NCBI GenBank assembly: GCA_041690135.1
Contig: JAWLHY010000002.1
Coordinates: forward strand, 1,008,342-1,072,341
Length of the DNA stretch: 64,000 nucleotides
Direction of reading: 5' to 3'
Source of the DNA: Armatimonadota bacterium
GTDB taxonomy: Bacteria > Armatimonadota > SYMT01
In this document: piece after piece, positions 25,087-44,740 of the stretch
How positions within the stretch are numbered: the stretch's first letter is position 1
Layout of the letters: every line of letters starts with the position of its first letter
The notes under the pieces: model-generated
The model's database searches: none
Told to the model about the DNA's origin: nothing
The model's input: only the letters and a program-made list of their open reading frames with translations
Made by a program: the position numbers and the translations under genes

Positions 25087-25412
25087 GGCCGATCCGCTAG
25101 GAATGGATACCAGTAGGCCGCCCTCCGCCTGTTGCCGGCCGGAGTGCCTGGCCCGAACAGGAACCGTGAGATTCGGGGACATGCGCCTTTCCCCTCCACC
25201 CTCCCGTCCCGCCCCGCACCCCCGGAGCGTCAGTCAGGAAGAAGGCAGAAGCGTGTGCTCCCTCCAGCCAAACGAGCCACGCTTCGGCCGCAGCCCTCCT
25301 TATCCTCATCATAATCTTTGTCCTAATCCGCGCAGCACACTGCCGGGTTCTGTCAGGGTGACCCTGCTACCATTCTTCCCAGAGGAACCTTCCGACCCCG
25401 AGGGAACGACCC

Positions 25413-26423: not shown

Positions 26424-26666
26424 AGAGGGAGGCCAACTTAGTGCCGAGTGCCGGCCGCTGCTCCCCTCAATCTGTTGGTCAGGTAGTCGCTGTGGCGGAG
26501 ATGACACGCACCGCGAACGGAGAATGAGAGTTGTTTGGATATTCTTCTTGAAGCAGAGAAGGAACCGGCTGCTAGAGTATCGAATATTCTACGCGAACGT
26601 TTGGTGGTGGGCTGTTCGAATGTAAATCACACGCCTGCGGTGTGCGTGATGGGAGGAGATGCGGCG

Positions 26667-27293
26667 GTGAAGCGATACGAGGTGAGTTTTGAAGTTGAAG
26701 GGCCGGCCGCCATGTTCAACCGGCCGGACGCGGGTTCTACGCCCATTTCCTATCCGGTACCCACTTACTCTGCCTTGAAGGGCATGTTTGAAGCCGTTGC
26801 GCGCCTCCACGGAGCGTATCTCCGGCCGGTTCGTGTTGAGATATGCCGGCCCATCCGTTTTGAGAAATATGCCACGAATTACGGGGGGCCATTGCGCAAG
26901 CCCGACCAGATCAAGAAGGGCAACAACTATCAACTCGTAGCAACCATTCTCGTCGATGTTTGTTACCGAGTGTATGGGGATGTGCAACCCACGGGTGACG
27001 GTGATGGTTCGCTCAATCGCCTCCACGCGCTTCAAGTAATGTTCGAACGGAGACTGGCGAACGGGCAGTGGTACTATCCACCGGTGCTTGGCTGGAAGGA
27101 ATTCGTTCCAACGTATTTCGGACCTCTCCGGGACGGGAGCCGGCCGGAACCGGATGTGAACCTCTTTCTTCCCGCCCTGCTCCATTCGGTGTTCGATCGC
27201 CCGAAGGCCGGACGTGTCGCTCCGAGCTTTCGGCGGAATGTTCACGTTCGTGAAGGCGTGATCAATTTTGAGGAGGCGGCCGGTGCTGAGTGA
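26667..27293 (+). CDS. cas5: CRISPR-associated protein Cas5 (type I-C-like)
   Basis: FEVEGPAAMFNRP..SYPVPTYSALKGMFEA, ILVDVCY, MFERRL..G..PVLGWKEF; GGAGGAG RBS before GTG. Confidence 0.88.
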   Translation: MKRYEVSFEVEGPAAMFNRPDAGSTPISYPVPTYSALKGMFEAVARLHGAYLRPVRVEICRPIRFEKYATNYGGPLRKPDQIKKGNNYQLVATILVDVCYRVYGDVQPTGDGDGSLNRLHALQVMFERRLANGQWYYPPVLGWKEFVPTYFGPLRDGSRPEPDVNLFLPALLHSVFDRPKAGRVAPSFRRNVHVREGVINFEEAAGAE

Positions 27294-29427
27294 AGTCTAC
27301 CGCTTGTGGTGTAGCCTCGACCGAGCAGGTGTGGAGTTACCGCGAGTGCATCCCCGGGTGAATATTCCGGGCAGTACCAGTGGGCCTTGTCTGCGAGTCC
27401 GACTTAACCCGGAAGGAAGAGTTGCCGGTCTCGACGGTGTCACCCCAGATGACTGGTCGGGGCTATGGACGGTAGTTAGAACCAGCGAGGGTAGCTTCCC
27501 GGTAATTCGTGTAAAGCAACCACTTCTTTCGGTGCCGGCTGGCCTTGTGCTGTGGGCAGAACTGGCTGAAGCAAAAAAGGCAAAGGATCAGCGCAGGCGC
27601 ATCCGGATCTTGCAAGAGGCTGTCAGCTTTGCTCCAGACGCGTTGTTGCTCAAGAAGACTCTTGACCTCATACGCCGTGTAAGAGACGAGAAGGCAGGCG
27701 AACTGCTCGCCTGCACCGACCCTTGCGATCCGGATTTTGCAGCCCTCCCGGAGTTCGCCCGACGTTTCCAGCTAGCGGCACGCGAGCCGCTAACTCTCCT
27801 CGGCGAGGTTGGTACACAGGCGGTAGCAGGTCTGCTTTCAGGGCAGTCGGAGCTTCTGGATGTTGTCGAGGTCCTTCTACTTGGGAAAGGCGCACCCATT
27901 GATGACGGCTCACGACCGGACATCAATATTCAGCTTGCCTTCTGCCTTGATGATGAGCGCCTCTACCGGCGCCGTCTTTATAGCCGACACATGCGAGAGT
28001 TCGTAATGCAGATCCTTCCCAGTGAGCCGGATGCAGGTGGCCGGCCAGCACCTACGGATGGACGTGCTGAGGCTCTGGAGTGCGCCTTTATCGGGGTTTC
28101 GAAGGGCCTGCAGCACTCTGCCTTTCCCCCAGTTCGGCTCCCCCTGGTTGCTGAGAAGGGGGTGCCGTTGGTCTCCATGTTTAGCGAGGCCGCGTGTAAC
28201 CGTCGCTACGGACTTACCGACTCCTCGGTCGTGCCTGTTGACAAAGGCATGGCCTTACAGATGGCTGCCGCACTCCGGTGGGTGACTCTTGATGAGCGAC
28301 GCGGTGTAACCTGGAGAGGCGTTGCAAGCGGGAAGTTCGAGGCTTCTTCCCGCGGGAAGGTGGAAAAGCGAGATCTCCTTCTGGTGTATGTCGAGGATGA
28401 GCCCGAAATTCGTGCGGAATTTGCTGACTTCTTTGGCACGGATGCCTCCACACTCCAGAAGCAATTCGACGTCGAAACGGCTTCTGTTTGCGAGGCACTC
28501 GAAGGTCTCTCCAAGCGGAAGCCTCAAAGTCAGCTAAACCTAATCCTCATTCGTCAGGCTTCCGAGGGTCAGGTGCACGTCGCTCTTGCAGAGTCCGTCT
28601 CGGTCGTGGAGCTTCTGCATGGGGCTCAGCGGTGGCAAGAAGGTGCCAGGAACCTCCCGCCAATCGCCTTGCCTGTTCCGGGCAGCAAAGGGCAGAAAGC
28701 CGAACTACATCGCCCACGTGCTCCCTTCCCTGATCAAGTGGTCCGTCTGCTATCTGAAGACTGGGTCACGAATGGGACCAGGTCGAACAAGGTGGAGGGG
28801 ATCGGCCTCGGTCAGGTACTCGAAGTAATGCTGTGCAAGCCGGGCAAGTGGGAGCCGGGAGCTCGGTACTTGTTGGACCTCACTCTGCGCCGCACACAAT
28901 CGCTGCTTGTAGGAGTATTTGGCGCCCTTCGCACACCCGACCGCCGGAAGTGGGATGACTATGGTGCCGCTGTAAGAGAGAATGCTCTTCGGAGTGTGAG
29001 CATAATGGGGATTCTCCTGAGTGCTCTCGACCGCCAGAAGGAGACTTATATGGATTCGCCCACATTTCTTGTCGGGCGCTTGCTGTCGCTCGCCGACACG
29101 CTCCACCTCGAATACTGCAAGCACGTACGGGGAGGCGATATCCCGCCGCAACTCATTGGCAATGCGCTGATGCCGGTCGCCCGTGATAATCCGCTGGCTG
29201 CCGTGGATCGGCTTGGCGAACGATTGAGTGTTTACAAGGCATGGGCCACCAAGGCATCCGGCGATGACGTGGGCCTCGCGAAGTGGGCGGTTGGGCAAAT
29301 GGGTGAGGTCTGCCGTAGTTTGGCGGAGAAGCCTCCGTCCATTACGACAAATGAGGTGGACAGGGCCGAGATCTTCCTCGGTTACATGGCGAGTACTAAA
29401 GGTTCGTCCGGTGGAACGAACGGTTGA
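27283..29427 (+). CDS. cas8: Divergent Cas8 large subunit (Cas8c/Csd1-like)
   Basis: About 715 aa between cas5 and cas7; C-terminal helical domain with FLVGRLLSLAD and FLGY typical of Cas8c/Cas11; remainder unrecognised. Confidence 0.75.
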   Translation: MLSEVYRLWCSLDRAGVELPRVHPRVNIPGSTSGPCLRVRLNPEGRVAGLDGVTPDDWSGLWTVVRTSEGSFPVIRVKQPLLSVPAGLVLWAELAEAKKAKDQRRRIRILQEAVSFAPDALLLKKTLDLIRRVRDEKAGELLACTDPCDPDFAALPEFARRFQLAAREPLTLLGEVGTQAVAGLLSGQSELLDVVEVLLLGKGAPIDDGSRPDINIQLAFCLDDERLYRRRLYSRHMREFVMQILPSEPDAGGRPAPTDGRAEALECAFIGVSKGLQHSAFPPVRLPLVAEKGVPLVSMFSEAACNRRYGLTDSSVVPVDKGMALQMAAALRWVTLDERRGVTWRGVASGKFEASSRGKVEKRDLLLVYVEDEPEIRAEFADFFGTDASTLQKQFDVETASVCEALEGLSKRKPQSQLNLILIRQASEGQVHVALAESVSVVELLHGAQRWQEGARNLPPIALPVPGSKGQKAELHRPRAPFPDQVVRLLSEDWVTNGTRSNKVEGIGLGQVLEVMLCKPGKWEPGARYLLDLTLRRTQSLLVGVFGALRTPDRRKWDDYGAAVRENALRSVSIMGILLSALDRQKETYMDSPTFLVGRLLSLADTLHLEYCKHVRGGDIPPQLIGNALMPVARDNPLAAVDRLGERLSVYKAWATKASGDDVGLAKWAVGQMGEVCRSLAEKPPSITTNEVDRAEIFLGYMASTKGSSGGTNG
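29050..29427 (+). CDS. cas11: Probable internally translated Cas11 small subunit (125 aa), in frame within cas8
   Basis: AAGGAG at 29038-29043, 6 nt before in-frame ATG at 29050 that starts MDSPTFLVGRLL. Confidence 0.7.
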   Translation: MDSPTFLVGRLLSLADTLHLEYCKHVRGGDIPPQLIGNALMPVARDNPLAAVDRLGERLSVYKAWATKASGDDVGLAKWAVGQMGEVCRSLAEKPPSITTNEVDRAEIFLGYMASTKGSSGGTNG

Positions 29428-29445
29428 GAACAACAGGAGGAGAAG

Positions 29446-30309
29446 ATGGCAGATAGCGGGACGGAGTCGGTGCCCCGAGCGACGGGGTTGCTGGTGATCG
29501 AAGTGCGGAACTCCAATCCGAACGGTGATCCGGACCAGGAGAGTGACCCTCGTCAGCGGAGTCATGATCTGCGCGGAGTCATTTCCGGTGTGTCATTCAA
29601 ACGTAAGTTGCGTGACCTGGTGCAGGACAAGGAAGGACCAGTCTGGACTGAGGTGAGCCGGCACTTGGGCATTGGTGACCTGAGTGAGGAGTTTCATATT
29701 CTCGAAAGCCGCGGACGCGTGAGAAAGACCATTGAGGAAGAGATCAAAAGCGGCAAGTTCGAGGGTAAGTACTGGGACGCACGTCTCTTCGGCAATACGT
29801 TTCTGGAGAAGGATGGCACTGACTCACTCCGCACTGGCGTTGCGCAGTTCCCAATAGGCATATCCGTGGCGCCTATTCGCATCGAGCGCATGACGAACAC
29901 CAACAAGTCCGGTGTTCAGGAAGGTAAAGATCGGGGCATGGCTCCTCTCGGGTATCGCGTCGTTGAACATGGGGTCTATTGTATGCCGTTCTTCATCAAC
30001 CCCACGGCGGCTACTCGCACTGGCTGCACGCGCCGCGACGTCGAACTGCTGTTGAAGCTCATTCCTTACGCATATCCCCACACCGCTTCGCACGTTCGTC
30101 CCTACGTTGAAGTGCGTCACGCCTGGTATGTCGAGCACAAGTCGCGGTTAGGGTCCTGCTCCGACTTCGCAATCATCGATGCCTTGACGCCTCGTCGGAC
30201 AGGAAATCCAGACGCACCTTCGACGAGTTGGGCCGATTACGATGTGCCAACGGATCTCGACGGCCTTCGAGATCGCGTTCAACCCCTCCGCGACCTGGTA
30301 GCTGAGTGA
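29446..30309 (+). CDS. cas7: Cas7 backbone subunit (Csd2/Csh2 type)
   Basis: NSNPNGDPD, ISGVSFKRKLRD, YWDARLFG, TGVAQF. Confidence 0.92.
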   Translation: MADSGTESVPRATGLLVIEVRNSNPNGDPDQESDPRQRSHDLRGVISGVSFKRKLRDLVQDKEGPVWTEVSRHLGIGDLSEEFHILESRGRVRKTIEEEIKSGKFEGKYWDARLFGNTFLEKDGTDSLRTGVAQFPIGISVAPIRIERMTNTNKSGVQEGKDRGMAPLGYRVVEHGVYCMPFFINPTAATRTGCTRRDVELLLKLIPYAYPHTASHVRPYVEVRHAWYVEHKSRLGSCSDFAIIDALTPRRTGNPDAPSTSWADYDVPTDLDGLRDRVQPLRDLVAE

Positions 30310-32513
30310 TGTCCGATCCTCTCGCCCATAGCCCGCGACCCCCGATTGCCTCCCAGAAGTACTGCGACCATGTGGGGAACGTGGGGAGAGGCGCGGCTAG
30401 GAACGCGTCCGCGGCCGCCACCTTCTATACCGGTGACAGTGCCCAGTTCGTGGATGTGGTCCGCGCGGCGGCGGACTACCACGATTTGGGAAAGCTGGAT
30501 GAAGCCAACCAGGAGGTGCTTCGCCGGGTATCGCGGGATCCGCTTCCGATAAGGCATGAGGACGCGGGGATCGCTGCACTCCTTCAGTTGCGCCGGAGGG
30601 AGTCGGCGATCCTCGTGGCGGCGCACCATGCGGGGCTCTTCGGTCAGGCCGCGGAGATGGAAAAGCCTGAGGGGCGATTGTTCCGCATTCCGGAAGTTGC
30701 GGATCGCACTGATCGATGCCTTGACGATTACCTTCGCGCTCATGAGGAAGCCGCATGCCCCGCCTGGTCGGAGTTACCGCCGAACCAGATTCACAGGTGC
30801 GGTTTCACGCGGCGGGTCGCGCTTTCATGTCTGGTGGATGCTGATCACGGAGATACGGCGCACAATTATGGTCGGGAGGTGGCCGTCGTCCCTCCCGACC
30901 CCAGGTGGGAGGAGCGCCTCGCAGCCCTCGACCGCTTTATTGCGAACCTCCCACGTGTGAACCCTGCTCGGGACGACCTTCGGCAAAGGGTGTTTGAATG
31001 TTGTCGTGCCGCTCCAATCGAGCCTGCGATCCGCTCCTGCGATGCCCCGGTCGGCAGTGGTAAGACGACAGCGGTCATGGCTCATCTGCTTCAGGCCGCG
31101 ATTGGAAAGAATCTGCGCCGCATCTTCGTCGTTCTTCCCTACACGAATATCATTCGCCAATCGGTGGAAATCTACCGGGATGCGCTCGTGCTGCCTGGCG
31201 AAAGGCCGGAGGACATCGTCGCCGAGCACCACCATCGGGCAGAGTTCCAGGACCTGGAGCTCCGTCAACTCGCCACACTCTGGCGTGCTCCCATCGTAGT
31301 GACCACGGCGGTTCAGTTTTTTGAAACGCTGGGAGCTTCTCATCCCGCCCGGCTTCGCAAACTGCACGAGTTGCCGGGTTCCGCAGTCTTTGTGGATGAG
31401 ACTCATGCCGCGATCCCCTCCCATCTTTGGCCGCAGATGTGGAAATGGCTGGAGACCTGGACGCGAGATTGGCGGGGGCACCTGGTTCTGGCGAGTGGAT
31501 CTCTACCACGCTTCTGGGAATTGGAAGAGTTTGTAGACCCACCGAGAGCGCCCAATGAGATACCGGATCTCGTCACCGAAGACCTCCGGCACGAGTTAGA
31601 GGCCGCCGAACAGGTGCGGACGCGACTACGCCGGCTTGACAACGGCTTGACCAGTCAGGAGTTGATCGACCTCGTAACCAGTCAGCCGGGCCCACGTCTC
31701 CTCATCCTGAACACGGTTCAGTCGGCGGCAGTGATCGCCGAACGGATGCGCAACCAGGGCCACCACGTAGTCCATCTCTCGACCGCTTTAGCGCCGGCGC
31801 ATCGGGATCTAATCGTTACGAGGGTGAAAGAACGGTTGCGCCTCGGATTCAACGACTGGACCCTGGTAGCGACCAGTTGCGTGGAGGCGGGGATGAACTT
31901 CTCCTTCCGTACCGGATTCCGCGAAAGTGCTGGAGTTGCCAACCTGATCCAGGTGAGCGGGCGCGTGAGTCGCGGTGGCGAACATTCCGAAGCCGTGGTT
32001 TGGGATTTTCGGCTGGTGTGCGATGCCATGCTCCGAGAGCATCCTGGCTTCCGCATTCCCCGGAGCGTATTGGCGAGACTATTCGATCAGGGCGCGATAG
32101 GCTCACTCTCGCCAAGTGATCTAACGAAGGAAGCGATGCGCCTGGAAGTGACGGACCGTTTCGAGGACCGGGCATGCGCTCTGCAGGATGCAGAGGAGAC
32201 TTTCGAGTATCCGACGGTGAGTAAGCTCTGCCGTGTCATCGAAGCGGATACCCGTACCGTGCTCATTGATCCTGAGTTAGCCCGGGCTTTGCTGCGGAAA
32301 GAGCAAGTCGACCGACGCCGGCTGATTCTCTATAGCGTCCAAATGTGGACCGATAAGCTCACGAAACTTCCCACCCACCTGCTGGTTGGGGAGCCCAACG
32401 ATCCCCAGGCGCTTTATGCGTGGGACGCTCCTTACGATCCCGACTTCCTGGGCTACATGGCCGGTGCAATCCCGATGTTGGAAGGTCTACGGGACGGCAT
32501 TTTCGTTGCATGA
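30306..32513 (+). CDS. cas3: Cas3 HD nuclease-helicase
   Basis: YHDLGK, AHHAGL, CLVDAD; APVGSGKT, LPYTNII.Q, VFVDETH, ILNTV, TSCVEAGM, QVSGRVSR. Confidence 0.93.
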   Translation: MMSDPLAHSPRPPIASQKYCDHVGNVGRGAARNASAAATFYTGDSAQFVDVVRAAADYHDLGKLDEANQEVLRRVSRDPLPIRHEDAGIAALLQLRRRESAILVAAHHAGLFGQAAEMEKPEGRLFRIPEVADRTDRCLDDYLRAHEEAACPAWSELPPNQIHRCGFTRRVALSCLVDADHGDTAHNYGREVAVVPPDPRWEERLAALDRFIANLPRVNPARDDLRQRVFECCRAAPIEPAIRSCDAPVGSGKTTAVMAHLLQAAIGKNLRRIFVVLPYTNIIRQSVEIYRDALVLPGERPEDIVAEHHHRAEFQDLELRQLATLWRAPIVVTTAVQFFETLGASHPARLRKLHELPGSAVFVDETHAAIPSHLWPQMWKWLETWTRDWRGHLVLASGSLPRFWELEEFVDPPRAPNEIPDLVTEDLRHELEAAEQVRTRLRRLDNGLTSQELIDLVTSQPGPRLLILNTVQSAAVIAERMRNQGHHVVHLSTALAPAHRDLIVTRVKERLRLGFNDWTLVATSCVEAGMNFSFRTGFRESAGVANLIQVSGRVSRGGEHSEAVVWDFRLVCDAMLREHPGFRIPRSVLARLFDQGAIGSLSPSDLTKEAMRLEVTDRFEDRACALQDAEETFEYPTVSKLCRVIEADTRTVLIDPELARALLRKEQVDRRRLILYSVQMWTDKLTKLPTHLLVGEPNDPQALYAWDAPYDPDFLGYMAGAIPMLEGLRDGIFVA

Positions 32514-32574
32514 GTTGGTGAGATCAGCCATCTTCCGCGTCTTCCCATACAGGCGGGCTCGCGGGTAAACAACC

Positions 32575-33207
32575 ATGTTCCCTGAAGAAGAGCTCGTCAT
32601 GATCTCGGCCATCGAGCACTACTCCTACTGCCCCCGGCAGTGCGCCCTCATCCACGTCGAGAGCATCTACCACGAGAACGTGCTCACCCTCCGCGGCAAT
32701 CACGCGCACACCCGGTCCGACGAGCCCGTCACCCGGATGGAGCGGGGGATCCGCATCGAGCGGGCGCTGCCCCTCTGGTCGGACCGCCTGGGCCTCACGG
32801 GGATCGCCGACGTGGTCGAGTTCCATCCGGACGGCGCCGTCTTCCCGGTGGAGCACAAGGTGGGTAAAACGCGCGGGCACCACCACGCCGCCCTCCAGCT
32901 CTGCGCCCAGGCCCTCTGCCTGGAGGAGATGCTGGCGGTCGCGGTCCCCTTCGGCGCGCTCTTCTCGCACGAAACCCGCCGGCGCGAGGAAGTGGCCCTG
33001 GGTCCGGATCTGCGCCGCGAAACGGAGCAGGTGGTGGCGGAGATTCGGCGGATGCGGACCGACGGCCACATGCCCCCGCCGGTCAACGACCGCCGCTGCC
33101 CGCGCTGCTCCCTGGTCGATGCCTGCGTTCCCGGCGCTGTCGCGGCGGCGGCGGCCCGCTCCGCCCGCTCTACCTGGGTGCTGGAACCCGAGGAGGCGAT
33201 CCTGTGA
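32575..33207 (+). CDS. cas4: Cas4 RecB-like nuclease
   Basis: HYSYCPRQCALIH, GIADVVEF, PVEHK, LQLCAQALCLEEM, CPRCSLVDAC. Confidence 0.95.
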   Translation: MFPEEELVMISAIEHYSYCPRQCALIHVESIYHENVLTLRGNHAHTRSDEPVTRMERGIRIERALPLWSDRLGLTGIADVVEFHPDGAVFPVEHKVGKTRGHHHAALQLCAQALCLEEMLAVAVPFGALFSHETRRREEVALGPDLRRETEQVVAEIRRMRTDGHMPPPVNDRRCPRCSLVDACVPGAVAAAAARSARSTWVLEPEEAIL

Positions 33208-34238
33208 CTCGCGAGCTGCTCAACACCCTCTACGTCACCACGCCCGGCGCCTACGTGCGGCTGGACCACGACACGCTCAAGGTCCAGTGCGACCGTGAAA
33301 CGCTCCTGCAGGTCCCCGTCCACCACCTGGGCGCCGTGGTGCTGTTCCACCGGGTATCCATCACCGGCGAGGCCCTCCGCCGCTGCGCCGCCGACGGTCG
33401 CGCCGTGGTGATGTTGGACCACCGTGGCCACTTCCAGGCGCGGGTCGTCGGCCCCACCAGCGGTAACGTCCTTCTCCGCAAGGCCCAGTACGACGCCCAG
33501 GCGAGCCCCACCGCCTGCACGGACATCGCCCGCCTCATGGTGGCGGGAAAGATCCGCAACAGCCGGACCACCCTCCTCCGGGGCGCCCGCGAGCGGCCGG
33601 AGGGGGAGGCCCGGCAGGCGCTCCGCGAAGCCGCCCAGGCCCTCGCCGGGACCCTCGAAGCCCTTCGCATCGCCGTCTCGCTCGAGCAGGTCCGCGGTCT
33701 CGAAGGCCTCGCCGCCGCCGGTTACTTCCATGCCTTCCCGCACCTGCTCACCGTCCCCACCGAGGAGTTCGCCTTTCGCACCCGCTCGCGCCGGCCCCCG
33801 CGCGACCGTACCAACGCCCTCCTCTCCTTCCTCTACACCCTGCTCACGGGCGACTGCACCGCCGCCATCGAAGGGGTGGGGCTCGACCCCCAGTTCGGCT
33901 ACCTCCACGCCCTCCGCCCCGGCCGCCCCGCCCTCGCCCTCGACCTGGTCGAAGAGCTGCGGAGCTGCGTCGCCGACCGCCTGGCGCTCGCCCTCATCAA
34001 CCGCCGCCAGGTCCGGCCCGAGCACTTCGAAGAGCGCGAAGGCGGCAGCGCCCTCCTCACCGCGGAAGGCCGTAAGCTCGTCCTCGCCGCCTACCAGAAG
34101 CGCAAGCAGGAAGAGGTTCCGCACCCGCTCCTCGCCAACCCCGTCCCCCTCGGCCTCGTCCCGCACCTCCAGGCCCGCCTCCTCGCCCGCCACCTCCGCG
34201 GCGAGCTGGAAGAATACCCCCCCTACCTCACCCGCTAA
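33204..34238 (+). CDS. cas1: Type I-C Cas1 endonuclease
   Basis: LLNTLYVTT, SGNVLLRKAQY, RGLEG, RSRRPPRD, NALLSFLY, GLDP..GYLH, LALDLVEELR, ARHLRGELEEYPP. Confidence 0.97.
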   Translation: MTRELLNTLYVTTPGAYVRLDHDTLKVQCDRETLLQVPVHHLGAVVLFHRVSITGEALRRCAADGRAVVMLDHRGHFQARVVGPTSGNVLLRKAQYDAQASPTACTDIARLMVAGKIRNSRTTLLRGARERPEGEARQALREAAQALAGTLEALRIAVSLEQVRGLEGLAAAGYFHAFPHLLTVPTEEFAFRTRSRRPPRDRTNALLSFLYTLLTGDCTAAIEGVGLDPQFGYLHALRPGRPALALDLVEELRSCVADRLALALINRRQVRPEHFEEREGGSALLTAEGRKLVLAAYQKRKQEEVPHPLLANPVPLGLVPHLQARLLARHLRGELEEYPPYLTR

Positions 34239-34328
34239 AACCACCCCCTGGTCCCCACCCGTCCGGCAACGCACCACGCAAAACGAACTCGGATCACCCC
34301 GCCCTACCCTTGGTCCGCGCCGGTCCGG

Positions 34329-34620
34329 TTACGCATTACGAATTACGCATTACGAATTACGCATTACAAAGCCCATATCCGAGACACCACTCTCGAATCA
34401 AGCGCATCCAAAGCACGTAAGCCTCACGCCTCACGCACACGTCGTGTCCTTAGCGGTTCGAATTACGCAATACGCATTACGCAATAAGCTCACGTCCGAG
34501 GCAAAATCCCTGCCCCCGCAGCCGCCCCGCACGTAAGTCTCACGCATTACGCATTACGAAACCCGTGTCCGAGGCACCACTCTCGAACCACGCGCAGCCA
34601 AAGCACGTAAGCCTCCCGCC
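34329..34620. repeat. Heptamer (TTACGCA/TTACGAA) tandem repeats interspersed with 45-50-nt CCGAG units, between cas1 and cas2
   Basis: Direct reading; duplicated unit at 34378 and 34567; related cluster at 44456-44737. Confidence 0.8.
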
Positions 34621-34621
34621 A

Positions 34622-34912
34622 ATGAACCTCCTCATTTGCTACGACGTGAACACCCTCACCCCCGAAGGCCGCAAGCGCCTCCGGAAAGTCGCCCAGGCCT
34701 GCCAGGCGTATGGGCAGCGCGTCCAGTACTCCGTCTTCGAGTGCACCGTCAACCCCGCCAACCTCGAACGCCTCCGCCAGCGCCTGGTCGCCATCATCCA
34801 TCCCTCCGAGGACAGCCTCCGTCTTTACTACCTCGGCGCCCGCCGCGAGGAAGTTGTCGAAGTCCACGGCCGCGACCACTACGTCGACTTCACCGAGCCG
34901 CTCATCCTGTAG
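34622..34912 (+). CDS. cas2: Cas2 endoribonuclease
   Basis: LLICYDV, RLRKVAQACQAYGQRVQYSVFEC, EDSLRLYYL. Confidence 0.96.
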   Translation: MNLLICYDVNTLTPEGRKRLRKVAQACQAYGQRVQYSVFECTVNPANLERLRQRLVAIIHPSEDSLRLYYLGARREEVVEVHGRDHYVDFTEPLIL

Positions 34913-35154
34913 TCAGCGGCGGAACGCGCACCTCACCAGCGCCTCAAGCACTGTAGCTCCATCGGCGCCGTGAACGAACTCCCGCCTGTCTCCGAAACGC
35001 CGCCGGTTAGCCGCGCCGTAATGTCGCGGATCGGAAGCAACGAGCTCGCAGCCGTTAGGTCCGCACAGGAGTTCGTGCCTGCCACAGGGAACGGTGGGGA
35101 GGACCCAGGGGGCGAAAGCTCTCCACCGCACGCGAAACCGTGCGTGGTGGGTCC
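34913..35154 (+). promoter_or_regulatory. CRISPR leader
   Basis: Non-coding region between cas2 and first repeat; ACGAACTCC/GGAGTTCGT inverted repeat; repeats homogeneous at this end and degenerate at the far end. Confidence 0.75.
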
Positions 35155-38100
35155 GTCGCACCCGGCCACCGAGCCGGGTGAGGATTGAAACCAGCGGAGC
35201 GACGATCGGCTTACCCGACACCGCAGCACGTCGCACCCGGCCACCGAGCCGGGTGAGGATTGAAACCGATCTCAAACACGGTCGCCCCGAGCTTGTTGGC
35301 GTCGCACCCGGCCACCGAGCCGGGTGAGGATTGAAACACCCGTGAGATCACGGAAGCGCTCGGGGCCGCTTTCGTCGCACCCGGCCACCGAGCCGGGTGA
35401 GGATTGAAACCCGCTACGGCCTGGACCGGACCACCGCCGACGAGCGTCGCACCCGGCCACCGAGCCGGGTGAGGATTGAAACACGACGGCGATTGCGGGG
35501 GCGGGGGTTTCGCCGTCCTGTCGCACCCGGCCACCGAGCCGGGTGAGGATTGAAACAGCGCGTCGCTGGCCAGGTACTCCGGCAGCTCCGCGGTCGCACC
35601 CGGCCACCGAGCCGGGTGAGGATTGAAACTTCCGCTCCCAGTGCTTCTCCAGCGAACTGCGCTCCGGTCGCACCCGGCCACCGAGCCGGGTGAGGATTGA
35701 AACACGAACACCCCCCGCGTGCGGCTGTAGCCCAGCCGCTCCGTGTCGCACCCGGCCACCGAGCCGGGTGAGGATTGAAACTCGCGAGGAGGTGGAGATG
35801 GGGCAGGCGGCCGGCAAGCGTCGCACCCGGCCACCGAGCCGGGTGAGGATTGAAACACGTACAAGTAGCGAGCCGCCAAACTACCCTTTGGGTCGCACCC
35901 GGCCACCGAGCCGGGTGAGGATTGAAACCGCCGGTAGCGGTAGATCCGGATCGTATCCACCCCGCGTCGCACCCGGCCACCGAGCCGGGTGAGGATTGAA
36001 ACCTGAAGGCGGCGATCACGCCGGTAGAGGTACCGTGCTCCGTCGCACCCGGCCACCGAGCCGGGTGAGGATTGAAACGTGCCCTGCTTCACGTAACTGG
36101 TTTCATCCGCCTTTGGTCGCACCCGGCCACCGAGCCGGGTGAGGATTGAAACACAGCGTCGTTATCCTCTCTTCCGGAGTCAGGCAGTGTCGCACCCGGC
36201 CACCGAGCCGGGTGAGGATTGAAACCGCCGGTAGCGGTAGATCCGGATCGTATCCACCCCGCGTCGCACCCGGCCACCGAGCCGGGTGAGGATTGAAACC
36301 TGAAGGCGGCGATCACGCCGGTAGAGGTACCGTGCTCCGTCGCACCCGGCCACCGAGCCGGGTGAGGATTGAAACGTGCCCTGCTTCACGTAACTGGTTT
36401 CATCCGCCTTTGGTCGCACCCGGCCACCGAGCCGGGTGAGGATTGAAACACAGCGTCGTTATCCTCTCTTCCGGAGTCAGGCAGTGTCGCACCCGGCCAC
36501 CGAGCCGGGTGAGGATTGAAACGACTCGAGCCCCGTCCGCGCGGTACGAGAGGTCCGGGTCGCACCCGGCCACCGAGCCGGGTGAGGATTGAAACCGGAG
36601 TGTCGCTGTCGTTGGCCATATCCGGCCCGTAGAGTCGCACCCGGCCACCGAGCCGGGTGAGGATTGAAACGGCGGAGCGCGGGGTGCGTCCTGCGAGGAG
36701 AGAGATGGGTCGCACCCGGCCACCGAGCCGGGTGAGGATTGAAACCCGTACCGGCCGGCGGTCAGGCGTGCCGGGTCCGAGTCGCACCCGGCCACCGAGC
36801 CGGGTGAGGATTGAAACCATCTCGCGCGCGCCGGCAAACAACCCCAGCAGGATCGCGTCGCACCCGGCCACCGAGCCGGGTGAGGATTGAAACCGCCGCT
36901 GTCGCTCCCGCCAGGCCCGCAGGTATTCGTCGCACCCGGCCACCGAGCCGGGTGAGGATTGAAACCTCCTGCGCCCGGGCTGATTTCCACTGCGCCCAAG
37001 CGTCGCACCCGGCCACCGAGCCGGGTGAGGATTGAAACAGCTTGTCCGGGCGGGCGCCGATGGCGGCGATGGTGTGTCGCACCCGGCCACCGAGCCGGGT
37101 GAGGATTGAAACGCATACTCGATTTGCCGGCTATCCGTCCCGTTGTGCGGTCGCACCCGGCCACCGAGCCGGGTGAGGATTGAAACACCTGCCCGTGCCG
37201 GGCGCGTACCGCTGCCCCGAAGCGCGTCGCACCCGGCCACCGAGCCGGGTGAGGATTGAAACATCACCTCTGCGGGCGTGCCGTCGGCTCGGCGCGACGG
37301 TCGCACCCGGCCACCGAGCCGGGTGAGGATTGAAACGCGAGCACGTTGGAGAGCGTATGAGCCTCATCTTCCGTCGCACCCGGCCACCGAGCCGGGTGAG
37401 GATTGAAACTTGTAGTAGCCGTGATTGAGATCTTCGAGAATCGCCTGCGTCGCACCCGGCCACCGAGCCGGGTGAGGATTGAAACATCGCCCCCATTGCT
37501 TCCCGTTGCTGCCCGAACTGCTGTCGCACCCGGCCACCGAGCCGGGTGAGGATTGAAACCTCACTCATCCCTGCTCCCCCAATCGTCGCACGGCCGCCGC
37601 GTCGCACCCGGCCACCGAGCCGGGTGAGGATTGAAACCAGTGTAATCATTACCCTGCCGCACATAGCAAATACACGAATGTCGCACCCGGCCACCGAGCC
37701 GGGTGAGGATTGAAACACGCCGACCGGGGCAGGCACCTACACCGCCACGCTCTCGTCGCACCCGGCCACCGAGCCGGGTGAGGATTGAAACACGTCCTGC
37801 CCGTCGAACTGAAACGCGAAATCACTGACGTCGCACCCGGCCACCGAGCCGGGTGAGGATTGAAACTGGTGAATCAGGTCGATGCGGCGATCATTGCGGC
37901 GCGTCGCACCCGGCCACCGAGCCGGGTGAGGATTGAAACACCAACGTGGCGTGTGATGAGGCGCGCGAGCGCATTTGCGTCGCACCCGGCCACCGAGCCG
38001 GGTGAGGATTGAAACTTCGTCCTGGTAGCACAACCCGTCTTCGTCTAAACGTCGCACCCGGCCACCGAGCCGGGTGAGGATTGAAACAGGGCAAGACGTC

Positions 38101-41100
38101 CGGGCGCTCCGTGGCAGCCCTTGCGGTCGCACCCGGCCACCGAGCCGGGTGAGGATTGAAACGGGTCGTGGGCGCGGGCCGTGAAGATCCGGACTTGTCG
38201 CACCCGGCCACCGAGCCGGGTGAGGATTGAAACCGGGCCTGGAAAACCTTCGAGGCCCGGCCGGCCGGGGTGTCGCACCCGGCCACCGAGCCGGGTGAGG
38301 ATTGAAACCCCACGGCTGGCCCGTGGGGTTGCTGGGGCCAGCCCTGTCGCACCCGGCCACCGAGCCGGGTGAGGATTGAAACACCACCCTGGGGGGCCAC
38401 TCCAGCCGGTCCGATCCGTAGTCGCACCCGGCCACCGAGCCGGGTGAGGATTGAAACCAGCAGGCCAAGAGCGGCGAGGCGGTGCCGGCAGACGTGTCGC
38501 ACCCGGCCACCGAGCCGGGTGAGGATTGAAACAGCAGCACGTCGTACTGATCCGTGGGCTGAGTGTCGCCGGTCGCACCCGGCCACCGAGCCGGGTGAGG
38601 ATTGAAACTTCCGTCAGGTGCTCCCCCGGCGGTATCGCGTAATCCGTCGCACCCGGCCACCGAGCCGGGTGAGGATTGAAACCGCATCTCTTGCGCTGCC
38701 CGGCGAAGGTCCGGTTTGTCGCACCCGGCCACCGAGCCGGGTGAGGATTGAAACTCACAGCGGGCCGTCGCCGGCGCCATGGGGCAGCTCGACGTCGCAC
38801 CCGGCCACCGAGCCGGGTGAGGATTGAAACATTTCTTCCTCCACCAGGGGAAGACGAGCGGGAACGCGTCGCACCCGGCCACCGAGCCGGGTGAGGATTG
38901 AAACATCCTGGAAGAGATGCAGGAGCGCGGCTGGGAGCCGTCGCACCCGGCCACCGAGCCGGGTGAGGATTGAAACCCGACCTGGGGCCCCATCCACTCC
39001 TGCCGTTGCGGCGTCGCACCCGGCCACTGAGTCGGGTGAGGATTGAAACACGATAGTTCCGGTGAGTTCAACCGGTATGTGATAGGGTCGCACCCGACCA
39101 CTGAGTCGGGTGAGGATTGAAACGCGTGGGCGCCCGGCCGCAGTTCTAGGAGAGAATCGCCGGTCGCACCCGGTCCGGTGACCGGGTGAGGATTGAAACG
39201 GGCGGTGCTACGGTTGCGACAACGAAGCCTGGGACGTCGCACCCGGTCCGGTGACCGGGTGAGGATTGAAACTTCCGGAGCGGGGTCCAGCGCGATCCCG
39301 CTCCCTGACGTCGCACCCGGTCCGGTGACCGGGTGAGGATTGAAACCGGACTTCCACGTGCGCAACCACAACGGCCAGGACGTCGCACCCGGTCCGGTGA
39401 CCGGGTGAGGATTGAAACGCCATCACCTGCAGGTGCGGCCGGTGGGCCACGATCTGTCGCACCCGGTCCGGTGACCGGGTGAGGATTGAAACTCTATCAG
39501 GACTGTGAATCCCGCAGCGCTCCGGATTAGTCGCACCCGGTCCAGTGACCGGGTGAGGATTGAAACATCTTCGGTTGGCAAGGCTACAGCCTGCTTGACA
39601 GAGCGTCGCACCCGGTCCAGTGACCGGGTGAGGATTGAAACAGCGCGGATGACCTGCGGCGGATTTCCGAGACGGGTCGCACCCGGTCCAGTGACCGGGT
39701 GAGGATTGAAACGACTACGCAGTTCTGGTATGCGGCGACGCTGGAGTCGCACCCGGTCCAGTGACCGGGTGAGGATTGAAACCATCATCACAGCGGGGTG
39801 TTTGGGAATCAGTTTTACCTCGTCGCACCCGGTCCAGTGACCGGGTGAGGATTGAAACTTGTCCTGCGAACCGCTGCTGGGGCCGGTGGACTTAGTCGCA
39901 CCCGGTCCAGTGACCGGGTGAGGATTGAAACATGGACCACTACGTGCCGAACCTGCTGGTGTGGCGGCGCGTGTCGCACCCGGTCCAGTGACCGGGTGAG
40001 GATTGAAACAACCCGTGCGACGTGGTGGACAAGCCGAAGGTCCCGCGCGTCGCACCCGGTCCGGTGACCGGGTGAGGATTGAAACATCCCGGCCATTCCC
40101 TCCGCGAATTGGCTGGACAGGGTCGCACCCGGTCCAGTGACCGGGTGAGGATTGAAACAACCGGGCGGCACGCATCCAAAAACATCGGGTGGGGGTCGCA
40201 CCCGGTCCGGTGACCGGGTGAGGATTGAAACACGGTCTGGGCGGATGGAGCGCAGATCGGTAGCGCGACGTCGCACCCGGTCCGGTGACCGGGTGAGGAT
40301 TGAAACAGGGTCTCCAGGTCTCTCACGCCGCACCGCCTTTCGCTGTCGCACCCGGTCCGGTGACCGGGTGAGGATTGAAACGTCCGCGCGGAGTTCGGGG
40401 GACTGTGGGGGGGAGTCGCACCCGGGCCCGTGACCGGGTGAGGATTGTAACACCGTGAACGCCACGTCCGGGTTTGCCGGCAGGGGTCGCACCCGGTCCG
40501 GTGACCGGGTGAGGATTGAAACGATACGGTCCTGAAGATGGGCCAGAAGCGGGCCTACGTCGCACCCGACCTCACGGTCGGGTGAGGATTGAAACCGGTT
40601 GGCGCTCCGGAAGATTTCATTCGGGTAGAACTGTCGCACCCGACCTCATGGTCGGGTGAGGATTGAAACTCGAAGCTGGCAGCCGCCTGCCGGCGCTTCG
40701 CGGGTCGCACCCGGTCACCGGACCGGGTGAGGATTGAAACACCTACGAAAGCTCGAAGACGGTGCTGCGCCTTGGCAAGAGTCGCACCCGGTCACCAGAC
40801 CGGGTGAGGATTGAAACACCGGCTCGCCACACCAGCCGCAGGTGCGTGTGATGGTCGCACCCGGTCACCAGACCGGGTGAGGATTGAAACTGGCAACCCG
40901 TGCACTGCTGGGGGATGGTCGGGTTGGTCGCACCCGGTCACCAGACCGGGTGAGGATTGAAACCTTAGTAAGAAGGGGGTTTGGGATGAACCAGGCACAG
41001 GCTGGTCGCACCCGGTCACCAGACCGGGTGAGGATTGAAACTCGCTGTCGCGGGAGAAGAACCTCGTCTTGGCCTGGCTCACGTCGCACCCGGTCACCAG

Positions 41101-41634
41101 ACCGGGTGAGGATTGAAACTGCACGGCTAGGGAGTGCTGGGAAGGGCTGGGGATCAAGTCGCACCCGGTCACCAGACCGGGTGAGGATTGAAACGCCTCC
41201 GCCTGGGCGTCGAACCCGAGCTTCGTGAGGAGTCGAACCCGGCCACCGAGCCGGGTGAGGATTGCAACGGGGCCTGGTTGTCCACCAGAGCCTCGAGCAC
41301 GCGTCGCACCCGGCCACCGAGCCGGGTGAGGATTGAAACAGCGTGGCCGGCCCAACAACTACGGCGCCTCCCTGCGCGTCGCACCCGACCTCACGGTCGG
41401 GTGAGGATTGAAACTACACCTGGGACGAAGAGTTGGACAGCGAAGAGGCGTCGCACCCGGCCTCACGGTCGGGTGAGGATTGAAACAGCCTCCGGTGGTC
41501 CAGCGAGGACCCCCTCCCGCGGATGTCGCACCCGACCCCACGGTCGGGTGCGGATTGAAACTGGCTGCGGATCCAGCAGGGGTATTGCTTGGAGCGCGTC
41601 GCACCCGGTCTGGTGACCGGGTGAGGATCAAGGC
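35155..41634 (+). CRISPR. CRISPR array, about 88 repeats of 37 nt (major form GTCGCACCCGGCCACCGAGCCGGGTGAGGATTGAAAC), spacers about 33-42 nt
   Basis: Manual count; palindromic repeat ending ATTGAAAC; degenerate terminal repeat ending GGATCAAGGC; block-wise repeat variants from 39013 onward. Confidence 0.99.
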
Positions 41635-41699: not shown

Positions 41700-42280
41700 G
41701 TGCGAGAGACTTCCCCCCTTCTCTGCGTCGGAGAAGTTTACGCCCCGTGGGGGTGGGCCAGGTACCCACGAAGTGGGTGGCGGGGGATGAGGTCCTCCCG
41801 TGCAGCGGACCCAGGCGTCGTAGCTCCACTCACGCGATCTCCGGCCAGGTGGAGAGCGGAAGCCGTCAGCAGGTACAGCGAACTGGGAGCATTTGCCCAC
41901 GGTAATGTCACCCGCCACCCGCGCGCGGGTACCCCTCCCGAAAGCCTTCGGGACCCGGTCCGACACAGAGAGGTTTACGCCCCGAGGGGGTGGGCTAGCG
42001 GTTCAAACCCAGGGTGGCGGCAGAGTCAACCGGACAACTCCGAGGCGCTGCGCGAGCTTCTGAACCTCTCGATCCCGGCTCAAATCGAAGCCCTCCAGAG
42101 AGTTCTCGTTGGGTCCTCCGGGAGATTTCTTCGGGGATGCCTTCCTAACCATGCCTGCCCACCTGAACGCCTGAAAGCCCGAACGTTTACCCCCCACGGG
42201 GGGGCCCAATGCCTGAATGCCTGAATGCCTGAATGCCTGAACATTTACGCCCCACAGGGGTGCCCGAACGCCCGAATTCT
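41700..42280. repeat. Cluster of REP-like element, TTTACGCCCC..GGGG mini-hairpins and GCCTGAAT octamer repeats
   Basis: Mini-hairpins near 41737, 41973, 42187, 42244; (GCCTGAAT)x4 near 42211-42241. Confidence 0.75.
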
Positions 42281-42383
42281 CAACAATCTCTCAACGCAAA
42301 ACTACCAAACTTAAGGGTTGGATTCTCCGCGGGTCCGGACTATTTACCTGGTGCACAGTTCCAGTCGAAAACGGAGGACACCC

Positions 42384-43640
42384 ATGCACGTCCACACCCT
42401 CAATGGCCGGTCTCACGCTAACGGCGCCGTCGCCCTGCTCGAAAAGCCAGGTCCGCTCCCCGCGCCCCCTCCCGGCCTCCCCCAAGCCAATCGCGATCGT
42501 GATCGTGATCTCCCCGAGCCGTCTCTTCCTTCCCTCGTGCTAACTCTCGCACCCTTCTCTGCGGAACAGCTCCGCTCGCCCCACGGCCCCAAAGGCAATC
42601 CCTGTTCTCATCAGCCGTCGACCGCCCCCGCCTCCGATTTTCCTGATCCTCATCCTGATCGGCCGCAGCCTGTTCTTACTCTTACTCCTACTCCTACTCC
42701 TACTCCTACTCCTACTCCTACTCCTACTCCTACTCCTACTCCTACTCCCCAGACCCCCAAACTCTCCTCCCTGAACTCCCTCTCCCACGGCGTCCTCGCC
42801 CGCACCCCCGTGCTGCCCGGCGTGGAAAGCGAAACCGAGTGGCAGGCGTTCCGCGCCGGCATCCTCGCGGATTTCGCGCCGGTAGGGACCGCCCAGGAAG
42901 AGATCGCCGACGAAATCGCCGGGCTCATGTGGCGCAAGCGGCGCGTCACCCGGATGGAGACCGCCTGCTTCCACCAGGCCATCACCATGGCCCGGCAGGC
43001 CGGAGATCCCCATCCCGAGCTCGCCACGCCCACCGAGGCCGAGCTGCAAAAGGTCGCCCGCTACGAGGCCCACCTCACCCGTAACCTCCAGCGCTGCCTC
43101 AAGCTGCTCAAGGATCTCCGCACCCTGCCGCCCGACCCCAGCCACACTCGTGAACGTGACTGTAATCGGGATCGGTCACCTGATCCTTCGTATCAGTGCG
43201 AAACCCACAATTGCGAAACAAACTCCCGATTCTCATCCGACCCGCATAGTCTTAATCGTAATCCTCATCCTAATCGGCCGCAGGCCCCACCTTCAACTTT
43301 CAACCTGACCGACTGGACCGACACCCTCATCCGCGATGCCGAAGCCGTCATCGCCCGCAGCCAGGCCGCCCGCGCCTCCGCCGCCGCAAATCACGCGTCA
43401 ACGGGTTCCACTTCCAATCCGCCCGCTCCGACCAATCCGTCCGATCAAACCGAACCCCACAATTGCGAAACGAACTCCCCTCCCGTCTCCGCGCCTCCTA
43501 CTCCTGCTCCTACTCCTACTCCTACTCTTACTCCTGATCCGCCATTGGCCTCCGATCCGTCGGAACTCCACAATTGCGAAACGAACTTCTCCTCCGCCTC
43601 CGAAAAGGAAACCACGGAAACACCCTCAGCTTTGACCTGA
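42384..43640 (+). CDS. Hypothetical protein of an uncharacterised family (N..HG / P...E..lae.ia...WR..R..R.E / RYE..L.R motifs, NCETN repeats) with PT tracts
   Basis: GGAGG RBS; core SLNSLSHGVLA..WRKRRVTRME..ARYEAHLTRNLQRCL; three HNCETN motifs; (CCTACT)n tracts. Confidence 0.65.
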   Translation: MHVHTLNGRSHANGAVALLEKPGPLPAPPPGLPQANRDRDRDLPEPSLPSLVLTLAPFSAEQLRSPHGPKGNPCSHQPSTAPASDFPDPHPDRPQPVLTLTPTPTPTPTPTPTPTPTPTPTPQTPKLSSLNSLSHGVLARTPVLPGVESETEWQAFRAGILADFAPVGTAQEEIADEIAGLMWRKRRVTRMETACFHQAITMARQAGDPHPELATPTEAELQKVARYEAHLTRNLQRCLKLLKDLRTLPPDPSHTRERDCNRDRSPDPSYQCETHNCETNSRFSSDPHSLNRNPHPNRPQAPPSTFNLTDWTDTLIRDAEAVIARSQAARASAAANHASTGSTSNPPAPTNPSDQTEPHNCETNSPPVSAPPTPAPTPTPTLTPDPPLASDPSELHNCETNFSSASEKETTETPSALT

Positions 43641-43710
43641 ATGGACCAGCGCGAAGGTCAGATTCTTCCCCCAGCCGGGCACCGGGTACCCCGAAGGGGT
43701 GTGGGTGGCG

Positions 43711-44142
43711 GGGACAGGGGGGCGAAAGCGCGGAAGCCGGCACTTCATCCCGCCAACCGGAACTGGACCTTGGCATGAGCCATCCTAATCCTACTCATTG
43801 TCATTATCCTAATCCGCGAAGCCCTGGGACAGGGGGCCGAAACTGCGGAAGCACGCACTTCATCCTGCCAAACGGAACCAGGCCTTGGCCGAGACCCTCA
43901 TAATCCTAATCTTTATCTTGATCCTAATCCGCCAAGCCGGGGGGACAGGGGGCCGCAAAGGCGGAAGTATGCACCTCCTCCGGCCCGAAAAGCGAGGTCT
44001 TGGCCTCAATCTTCCTTATCCTTATCTTTATCCGCGAAGCCAGGGGGGCCGAAGACGCGGAAGTACGCACTTCGCCCCGCCAAACGAGCCGTGCCTTGGC
44101 GTGAGCCATCCTAATCCTAATCCTCATCTTCATCCGCGAAGC
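43711..44142. repeat. Four degenerate tandem units of about 100-115 bp containing ATCCTA/ATCCTC hexamer tracts
   Basis: Units start CAGGGGG(C)CG..GCGGAAG..CAC near 43711, 43826, 43942, 44041; related single copy near 25231-25335. Confidence 0.8.
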
Positions 44143-44455
44143 CCGAATTGCCCTGACCCCTCCCCCCGAATCCAACCGACTATCAGATTCAGCCGTGTTT
44201 GCCCCTCCTCCACTGCCCTGGTAGGCTATGATCAGGGGCCGAGGATAGGGGGTTAGGGGCCGGGGGTAGGGTGCTTGTCCCGCGGGCATACCACCGTACG
44301 GGTTGCCCTGCCCGCGCCGGGTACCCACGAAGCATTTCGGCTGCAGTCCAACTGCAGCCGATCCTGGAGAATTTACCAACAACATCCTGAATGCCCGAAA
44401 GCCCGAATGCCGGAAAGCCTGAACGCCCGCACCCAAAGCATGTCCCTCAAGCAAC

Positions 44456-44737
44456 ACACGCAATACGCATCACGCAGCAGCCCGAGGTAGTCCCATTGCC
44501 ATCGCACCTACCTCGCGCGAAAGTATTACGCATTACGCAATACGCATCACGCACGCGTCCGAGGTAGTAGCCCAAGCCTCCCACATACCCAACGCACGAA
44601 AGTCTTCGCATCACGCATCACGCACTACGCACTACGTAATACGCATCACGCCCCCACGTCCGAGGCGCAATCCCTGCTCCCGCAGCCGCCTCGCACGGTA
44701 GCCTCACGTTTCACGCAATACGCATCACGCATCACTC
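44456..44737. repeat. Heptamer (ACGCAAT/ACGCATC) repeat cluster with CCGAGG units, directly upstream of ftsK
   Basis: 44655-44697 matches 34491-34533 at 39 of 43 nt. Confidence 0.8.
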
Positions 44738-44740
44738 CGT

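Follow-up and report, generated by a model that had tools for sequence, protein, structure and literature searches.

In a stretch of 64,000 nucleotides (nt) from the genome of an Armatimonadota bacterium (contig JAWLHY010000002.1, positions 1,008,342 to 1,072,341 of the forward strand; hereafter the window), an array of 88 CRISPR repeats at 35155–41634 carries the four-nucleotide loop of its repeat hairpin in both orientations between identical stem arms. Such a loop flip represents a real and recurrent class of CRISPR repeat variation that has apparently gone undescribed so far. The mutation class itself is already known from ribosomal RNA (rRNA), from plastid hairpins and from Escherichia coli quasipalindromes. 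We consider the best explanation, with a probability of about 0.75, to be an inversion of the hairpin loop by template switching, combined with copying of the flipped repeat at the leader end and shuffling of repeat alleles by recombination.

Both loop orientations in one perfect stem

All repeats of the array are 37 nt long, lie on the + strand and consist of GTCG, a 9-nt arm, a 4-nt loop, a second 9-nt arm and the 3' end AGGATTGAAAC. They were listed by scanning for the 5' end of the repeat, which yielded 89 matches, of which 88 are true repeats and one (41209) lies inside a spacer; repeat numbers follow this 89-match listing, and the terminal repeat is accordingly repeat 89. Stem classes were labelled by the inner four bases of each arm, and three were found. 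The major class, GGCC/AGCC, forms an 8-bp stem with a C.A mismatch, has ACCG as its loop region and accounts for 53 copies (repeats 1–52 and 85) plus one mutated copy. The GGTC/GACC class forms a perfect 9-bp stem from the 5' arm CACCCGGTC and the 3' arm GACCGGGTG, while the GACC/GGTC class forms another perfect stem, with the loops TCAC, TCAT or CCAC.

The two orientations coexist in the GGTC/GACC stem. This stem encloses CGGT in ten repeats (39163, 39236, 39310, 39382, 39456, 40049, 40195, 40270, 40345 and 40486), CAGT in eight (39530–39973 and 40122), ACCA in six (40781–41158), ACCG in one (40704) and TGGT in the degenerate terminal repeat (41598). CGGT and ACCG are exact reverse complements of each other: the loop keeps its length of 4 nt and differs at 4/4 positions, both 9-nt arms are identical in the two orientations and 0/18 stem positions are changed. 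TGGT and ACCA are also exact reverse complements within this stem. These two contrasts had been singled out by the original prediction, and both are present as described, the first with 10 copies against 1 and the second with 6 copies against 1. Hairpins of both orientations, folded as single-stranded DNA, are equally stable (−11.4 to −11.7 kcal/mol), and no flip occurs in the 53 copies of the major repeat with its mismatched stem.

Matches to the repeat pattern across the whole genome (9.1 Mb, 25 contigs) numbered 84 in the forward direction and 0 in reverse and were confined to this array, in agreement with the earlier claim that the asymmetric ends GTCG and AGGATTGAAAC never flip. Exchange with a second, inverted array in the same genome was dropped as a candidate because the repeat is present in this array only. 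A site-specific invertible switch (inverton), in which recombinase-bound inverted repeats enclose tens to thousands of bp and a population contains both orientations, was likewise set aside, as the inverted segment spans 4 nt between 9-bp arms.

The loop contains a single CpG, and this affects how many of the pairs can be counted. Transitions at the CpG convert CGGT into TGGT or CAGT and ACCG into ACTG or ACCA, and all four products are present in the array. TGGT, CAGT, ACCA and ACTG pair as reverse complements because all of them are CpG transitions of CGGT or ACCG. The extra pairs are therefore an automatic consequence, and the window provides one independent signal, CGGT versus ACCG. Counting three reverse-complement pairs as independent evidence was rejected for this reason and because CAGT and ACTG occur in different stems. 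One further observation of the original prediction stands only in part. CAGT and ACTG are indeed reverse-complementary as loops, but their hairpins are not, since ACTG sits in GGCC/AGTC and GACC/AGTC stems. The major repeat does carry ACCG, within a different and imperfect stem. Parallel transitions are a sufficient explanation for the extra pairs in the window, to which further flips could also have contributed. For two loops that differ at all four positions, the probability of being exact reverse complements by chance is 1/81.

Among single changes in the repeat family, 43/60 were transitions and 16/60 fell at CpG positions, a mild enrichment relative to the 18% of repeat positions that are CpG. 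The sole match to a C5 cytosine methyltransferase (PF00145) in the genome lies at G000:C2:890767-891870; this protein could bear on deamination at CpG or CCGG in the loop.

Flipped loops in related arrays

Public collections were surveyed for loci whose repeats share these ends, with the 12 bases at the centre left free. Such loci numbered 59 in the species-genome collection and at least 120 in metagenomes. Grouping by spacers held in common sorted the matches listed into 164 array lineages, which contain 1,900 repeats and to which the survey counts in the next two sentences refer. More than one hairpin variant was present in 41/164 lineages, and 30 variant pairs had both arms in common but differed in the loop, 16 of them at one position and 14 at two or more. 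Among these 14 pairs, 8 were exact reverse complements, 5 were reverse complements with one or two additional transitions, and in the remaining 1 an intermediate loop was present that connects the two variants. Wherever loops in the same stem are not connected by single steps, they are reverse complements, either exact or with transitions. The controls, loops related by reversal only or by complementation only, accounted for 0/30 same-arm pairs among the matches listed, which supports the expectation that reverse-complement pairs exceed chance.

Exact loop inversions were found in two stem contexts besides that of the window. TTCG and CGAA share a stem with the arms CACCCCGTC and GACGGGGTG in L066, L075, L168/L157, L171 and L180. 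GCGA and TCGC share a stem with the arms CACCCGGCC and GGCCGGGTG in L086, a pair that differs at 2 loop positions and has a chance of 1/9. A weaker case, L173, combines CTGG and CCAG with a difference at one stem base.

From leader to trailer, the array of L168 carries TTCG in repeats 1–22, CGAA in 23–30, CAAA in 31, TTTG in 32–34, CGAA in 35 and TTCG in 36. The orientation thus changes four times within 36 repeats, with TTTG and CAAA again forming a CpG-transition pair. The original prediction had the palindromic core flipping repeatedly; the window needs one flip only, whereas this relative does show repeated changes of orientation. L157 represents this array as found on a contig from another, separate assembly, with the identical variant at 30/30 shared repeats, which speaks against an assembly artefact for the TTCG/CGAA family.

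The exact inversion signature thus recurs in other arrays, and it is restricted to perfect stems. For the comparison of stems, 28 loci from one bacterial order and three whole arrays were added and arrays sharing spacers were removed, which left 1,840 repeats in 93 arrays, each with 4 repeats or more. Flips occurred in 5/19 arrays in which at least three repeats combine a perfect 9-bp stem with a loop that is not palindromic, compared with 0/74 of the others (Fisher one-sided p = 2.2e-4). Wider sampling gave no further flip among 6 loci on viral contigs, in the bacterium's own phylum (5/401 genomes matched) or in the order around genome G401 (37/151 genomes matched). For the latter order, 28/30 loci were taken in, and L234 and L255 were left out. 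One surveyed locus, L251 (G537:C6), has two repeat alleles, in 14 and 4 copies, that differ at one stem pair, G-C versus C-G, a double transversion that preserves pairing.

Arrangement of the repeat variants

The variants in the window are arranged in blocks, as expected from the earlier claim that they are propagated after arising. A 242-nt non-coding stretch between cas2 and repeat 1 (34913..35154, +) is the putative leader, and because repeats 1–52 are identical and the last repeat is degenerate, new spacers appear to enter at the 35155 end. From this end, the array begins with the major repeat (repeats 1–52, 35155..38976, +; DNA hairpin −10.2 kcal/mol). Repeats 53–54 (39013..39123, +) have the loop ACTG in GGCC/AGTC (wobble) and GACC/AGTC (compensated) stems, with repeat 53 reaching only −6.7 kcal/mol. 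Next come repeats 55–73 (39163..40522, +; −11.4 kcal/mol), with the perfect stem and CGGT (10) or CAGT (8), and then repeats 74–75 of the GACC/GGTC class (40559..40669, +), with the loops TCAC and TCAT and scores of 49.0–49.2 bits against the Rfam family CRISPR-DR9. Repeat 76 (40704..40740, +; −11.6 kcal/mol, 48.5 bits) returns to the perfect GGTC/GACC stem with ACCG, and repeats 77–82 (40781..41194, +; 51.7 bits) share this stem with ACCA. Repeats 84–88 (41232..41561, +) comprise two of the major type, repeat 84 with 2 substitutions, and three of the GACC/GGTC class (TCAC, a wobble form with TCAC, and CCAC). Repeat 89 (41598..41634, +; −11.6 kcal/mol) closes the array at the trailer end with a perfect stem, the loop TGGT and a degenerate 3' end. 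Repeat 72 (40415–40451) occurs once and departs from its neighbours by three changes close together; two of them lie in the hairpin, where they give rise to GGGCCC, and the third lies in the 3' tail.

Compensatory transitions set the stem classes apart, and G.T wobble intermediates persist in repeats 53, 54 and 87 (39013–41561). An inversion linking the GGTC/GACC and GACC/GGTC classes is consequently not needed. From old to new, the classes follow one another as GGTC/GACC, GACC/GGTC, major, GGTC/GACC, GACC/GGTC, GGTC/GACC and major. Serial mutation of the leader-proximal repeat cannot produce this alternation, which indicates that recombination has put the array together as a mosaic from at least three repeat alleles. 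For the same reason, no tree of ancestral and derived loop states can be drawn from it. Separately, spacers 11–14 recur exactly as spacers 15–18, a tandem duplication of four units with a period of 297 bp (35929–36522) in the leader-side part of the array, which is uniform otherwise, so rearrangement does occur in this array.

Proposed mechanism and its alternatives

We propose that the loop was inverted at least once in the perfect-stem variant, from ACCG to CGGT. A polymerase would cross to the complementary strand within one stem arm, copy the loop backwards and switch back within the other arm. The stem, the asymmetric repeat ends and the hairpin needed for CRISPR RNA (crRNA) processing would be left intact, and a perfect stem would keep no other trace of the strand switch. 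The confinement of flips to perfect 9-bp stems fits this model. The flipped allele would then be copied into new repeats at the leader end, giving blocks of identical variants because the leader-proximal repeat is copied at spacer acquisition, and blocks of different repeat alleles would later be interleaved by recombination. The remaining reverse-complement loop pairs would stem mainly from transitions at the single CpG of the loop in either orientation.

Several observations weigh against this interpretation or narrow it. Because 4 of the 5 flip-bearing arrays come from a single repeat clade, the Fisher test treats them as more independent than they are, and the independent stem contexts number three, one of which differs at only 2 loop positions. 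No flip was found in G410, which has 88 repeats of a hairpin that flips elsewhere, or in G486, which has 240 repeats, 32 of them with a perfect stem; flipping must therefore be rare or lineage-dependent. In the window, the two orientations are not adjacent, since repeats 74–75 of another stem class lie between them, and as the block order does not result from serial mutation, the array itself does not settle the direction and timing of the flip. Part of the alternation of orientation in flip-bearing populations may come from recombination between coexisting alleles instead of new flips. Moreover, the variants in the window rest on one assembly, and template switching is a process that we infer, as it is not observable in sequence.

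The alternative that survives best, although we regard it as doubtful, couples flipping to adaptation, the mechanism put forward in the original prediction. It holds that loop flips, and perhaps most repeat changes, arise during repeat duplication by Cas1–Cas2. After integration, both strands of the leader-proximal repeat would be single-stranded gaps able to fold into hairpins, and a repair polymerase would putatively cross to the complementary gap; flips would then be repeated and specific to duplication. Flipped alleles do occur in blocks of 19 repeats (55–73) and 7 repeats (76–82), and the four orientation changes within the 36 repeats of L168 point the same way. Additionally, 64 arrays with 8 repeats or more (mean 26.5; drawn from loci L017–L264) contained variants with a single substitution, which were private in 22 cases and propagated in 21 among the matches listed. 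A ratio of about 1 to 1 is what duplication-linked change predicts, whereas roughly 13 private to 1 propagated would be expected if repeats mutated uniformly in place, judging from the mean array size. However, when changes private to one interior repeat were compared with changes at block boundaries, flips numbered 2 private versus 6 at boundaries, the same ratio as for substitutions (29 versus 87). The six boundary flips consisted of 3 pure flips and 3 with one added substitution, and pure flips overall comprised 2 private, 1 propagated and 2 single copies that had changed again. The private-to-propagated ratio thus did not separate flips from substitutions. A flip at each duplication also finds no counterpart in the two long arrays mentioned above, where 88 duplications of a flip-prone hairpin (G410) and the 240 repeats of G486 were passed through without a flip. 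Furthermore, recombination between alleles yields blocks and interior singletons as well, and the block order in the window shows that it happened here. Whatever their kind, repeat changes seem either to cluster at the leader end or to be made by recombination, and flips do not look special among them.

An assembly or sequencing artefact, in which the loop would have been turned round at the palindrome during assembly or library preparation, is unlikely as the source of the variants in the window and ranks far below adaptation coupling. Palindromes are trouble spots for library chimeras, and the orientations in the window are known from assembled sequence alone. Nevertheless, the spacers are unique and the repeat ends asymmetric, and the orientation should therefore be fixed by every read or k-mer that extends beyond the palindrome of about 22 nt. 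The variants form coherent blocks instead of being scattered at random, and the TTCG/CGAA pattern is identical over 30 repeats in two separate assemblies. Least credible of all is the absence of any inversion, with point substitutions, or a 2-nt deletion and a compensating 2-nt insertion, arriving at the reverse complement by coincidence: although transitions dominate repeat changes (43/60 single changes) and, by our own derivation, loops with a self-complementary CG can be interconverted by two 2-nt indels, the chance of 1/81 per four-difference pair would have to be met in two independent stems alongside one case of 1/9, neither intermediates nor 35-nt repeats were seen in the arrays examined, and both survey controls were zero.

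Family assignment and direction of the flip

The repeats were assigned to Rfam CRISPR-DR9 (RF01322), whose model spans 37 nt and has a stem of 9 bp and a loop of 4 nt. Eleven of them reached the gathering threshold of 45 bits, with scores of 48.5–51.7 bits, whereas the other repeats listed in 38900–40830 scored 33.5–44.5 bits; the flipped and major forms lie just under the threshold. Repeats with ACCA, ACCG and TCAC scored 48.5–51.7 bits versus 42.7–43.6 bits for CGGT and CAGT, and ACCA, at 51.7 bits, was the closest fit to the consensus loop of the family. A family relative, G005, carries a TCACCG core. Together, these scores and this core suggest that ACCG is probably the older orientation and CGGT the derived one.

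In the other clade, TTCG is the widespread form of the loop. With a C-G closing pair, TTCG corresponds to the very stable UUCG RNA tetraloop. The flipped form CGAA has been kept through at least 23 repeats in L075, and this persistence suggests that the loop sequence is under little constraint. The flip itself would be neutral.

The CRISPR locus

The spacers of the array are unique and 33–42 nt in length, and the repeats are regularly spaced, as is characteristic of CRISPR. Upstream, a cas operon (26535..34912, +) was annotated with Pfam and NCBIfam. It contains an I-C-like cas5 (26535–27293, +; Cas5c 34.8 bits against a cut-off of 85), a large open reading frame (ORF) of 719 amino acids (aa) without a Pfam or NCBIfam match (27268–29427, +), an I-C-like cas7 (29446–30309, +; Csd2 110.8 bits against a cut-off of 182), cas3 (30306–32513, +), which lies between cas7 and cas4, then cas4 (32575–33207, +; above its cut-off), cas1 (33204–34238, +; type I-C Cas1c, 475.6 bits against a cut-off of 385) and cas2 (34565–34912, +; above its cut-off). 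The type I-C adaptation genes for Cas4, Cas1c and Cas2, all three over their cut-offs, thus adjoin the array. The array and operon are type I-C-like, with divergent effector genes. The 719-aa ORF occupies the position expected for a large subunit in the operon, for which Cas8c is the signature in type I-C, the best specific model for cas3 is I-G Cas3, far under its cut-off, and an ORF of 312 aa in or beside the operon (25067–26005) has no Pfam or NCBIfam match.

The locus resembles CRISPR-DR9 and type I-C arrays in its 37-nt repeat, 9-bp stem, 4-nt loop, 3' ATTGAAAC tail and adjoining Cas1c gene; it departs from them in that only 11 repeats reach the gathering score and the effector genes are divergent.

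Short tandem repeats are dense on the 3' side of the array (41700–44800). They include about 11 copies of the hexamer CTCCTA at 42673–42750, the octamer CCTGAATG at 42204–42241 and, at 41731 and 41968, a GTTTACGCCCC...GGGGTGGGC element that is present in several copies.

Relation to known systems and implications

Loop inversions have precedents outside CRISPR. Plastid genomes contain small hairpin-associated inversions, in which short loops between inverted repeats flip recurrently and homoplasiously. Those inversions sit in non-coding regions of an organelle, whereas here they affect a tandem array of functional RNA repeats. In E. coli, quasipalindrome-associated template-switch mutagenesis was reportedly described by Dutra and Lovett in 2006. 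As in that system, a short inverted repeat would be the site of the strand switch during DNA synthesis. The E. coli process is said to correct imperfect palindromes to perfection; in our array, however, the arms of the palindrome already match perfectly and the inversion is limited to the spacer between them.

The closest parallel comes from rRNA genes. According to Monttinen and Loytynoja (PNAS 2022, PMC8794818), template-switch mutations in rRNA hairpins include a class termed 'loop inversion only', with 69 clusters and typically 4-nt loops, which they ascribe to a switch of template during replication from one half of the stem to the other. The rRNA and CRISPR cases share the exact reverse complement, the conserved length, the unchanged stem and loops of mostly 4 nt. 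The two cases differ in several respects. PMC8794818 covers rRNA genes, with CRISPR unmentioned; the inverted rRNA loops it describes are mostly partly self-complementary, whereas the loop in the window changes at all four positions; and, unlike the rRNA inversions reported there, the CRISPR flip has been multiplied into blocks by repeat duplication.

Copying of altered repeats is established for CRISPR, as engineered leader-proximal repeat changes (indels) were duplicated into new repeats in a type I-E system, according to PMC5039180. The window array shares with ordinary repeat polymorphism (PMC5039180) variant blocks that are ordered along the array and a degenerate last repeat. The variants described for ordinary CRISPR repeats are substitutions and indels; the window array adds a flipped loop. 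A search of the full-text literature, with subscription journals and supplementary files outside its reach, found no report of inverted loops in CRISPR repeats, consistent with the original prediction that the mechanism was undescribed for CRISPR arrays.

Loop flips add a distinct mutation class to CRISPR repeat evolution, in which four bases change at once and the hairpin is kept. Consequently, alignment-based repeat trees and repeat-family classifiers over-count divergence at such sites; a flip costs 6–9 bits against the Rfam model and pushes the repeat under the family threshold. At the same time, the flip provides a sharp lineage marker for array histories and for recombination between arrays, and it indicates that this Cas5-type processing system leaves the loop sequence free to vary. 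A link between flips and spacer acquisition, if there is one, would make the flips reporters of the single-stranded repeat intermediate in living cells. Should the duplication-coupled reading prove true, flipped loops would constitute a natural fossil record of the single-stranded integration intermediate and a CRISPR-specific route by which repeats may diversify without loss of the hairpin.

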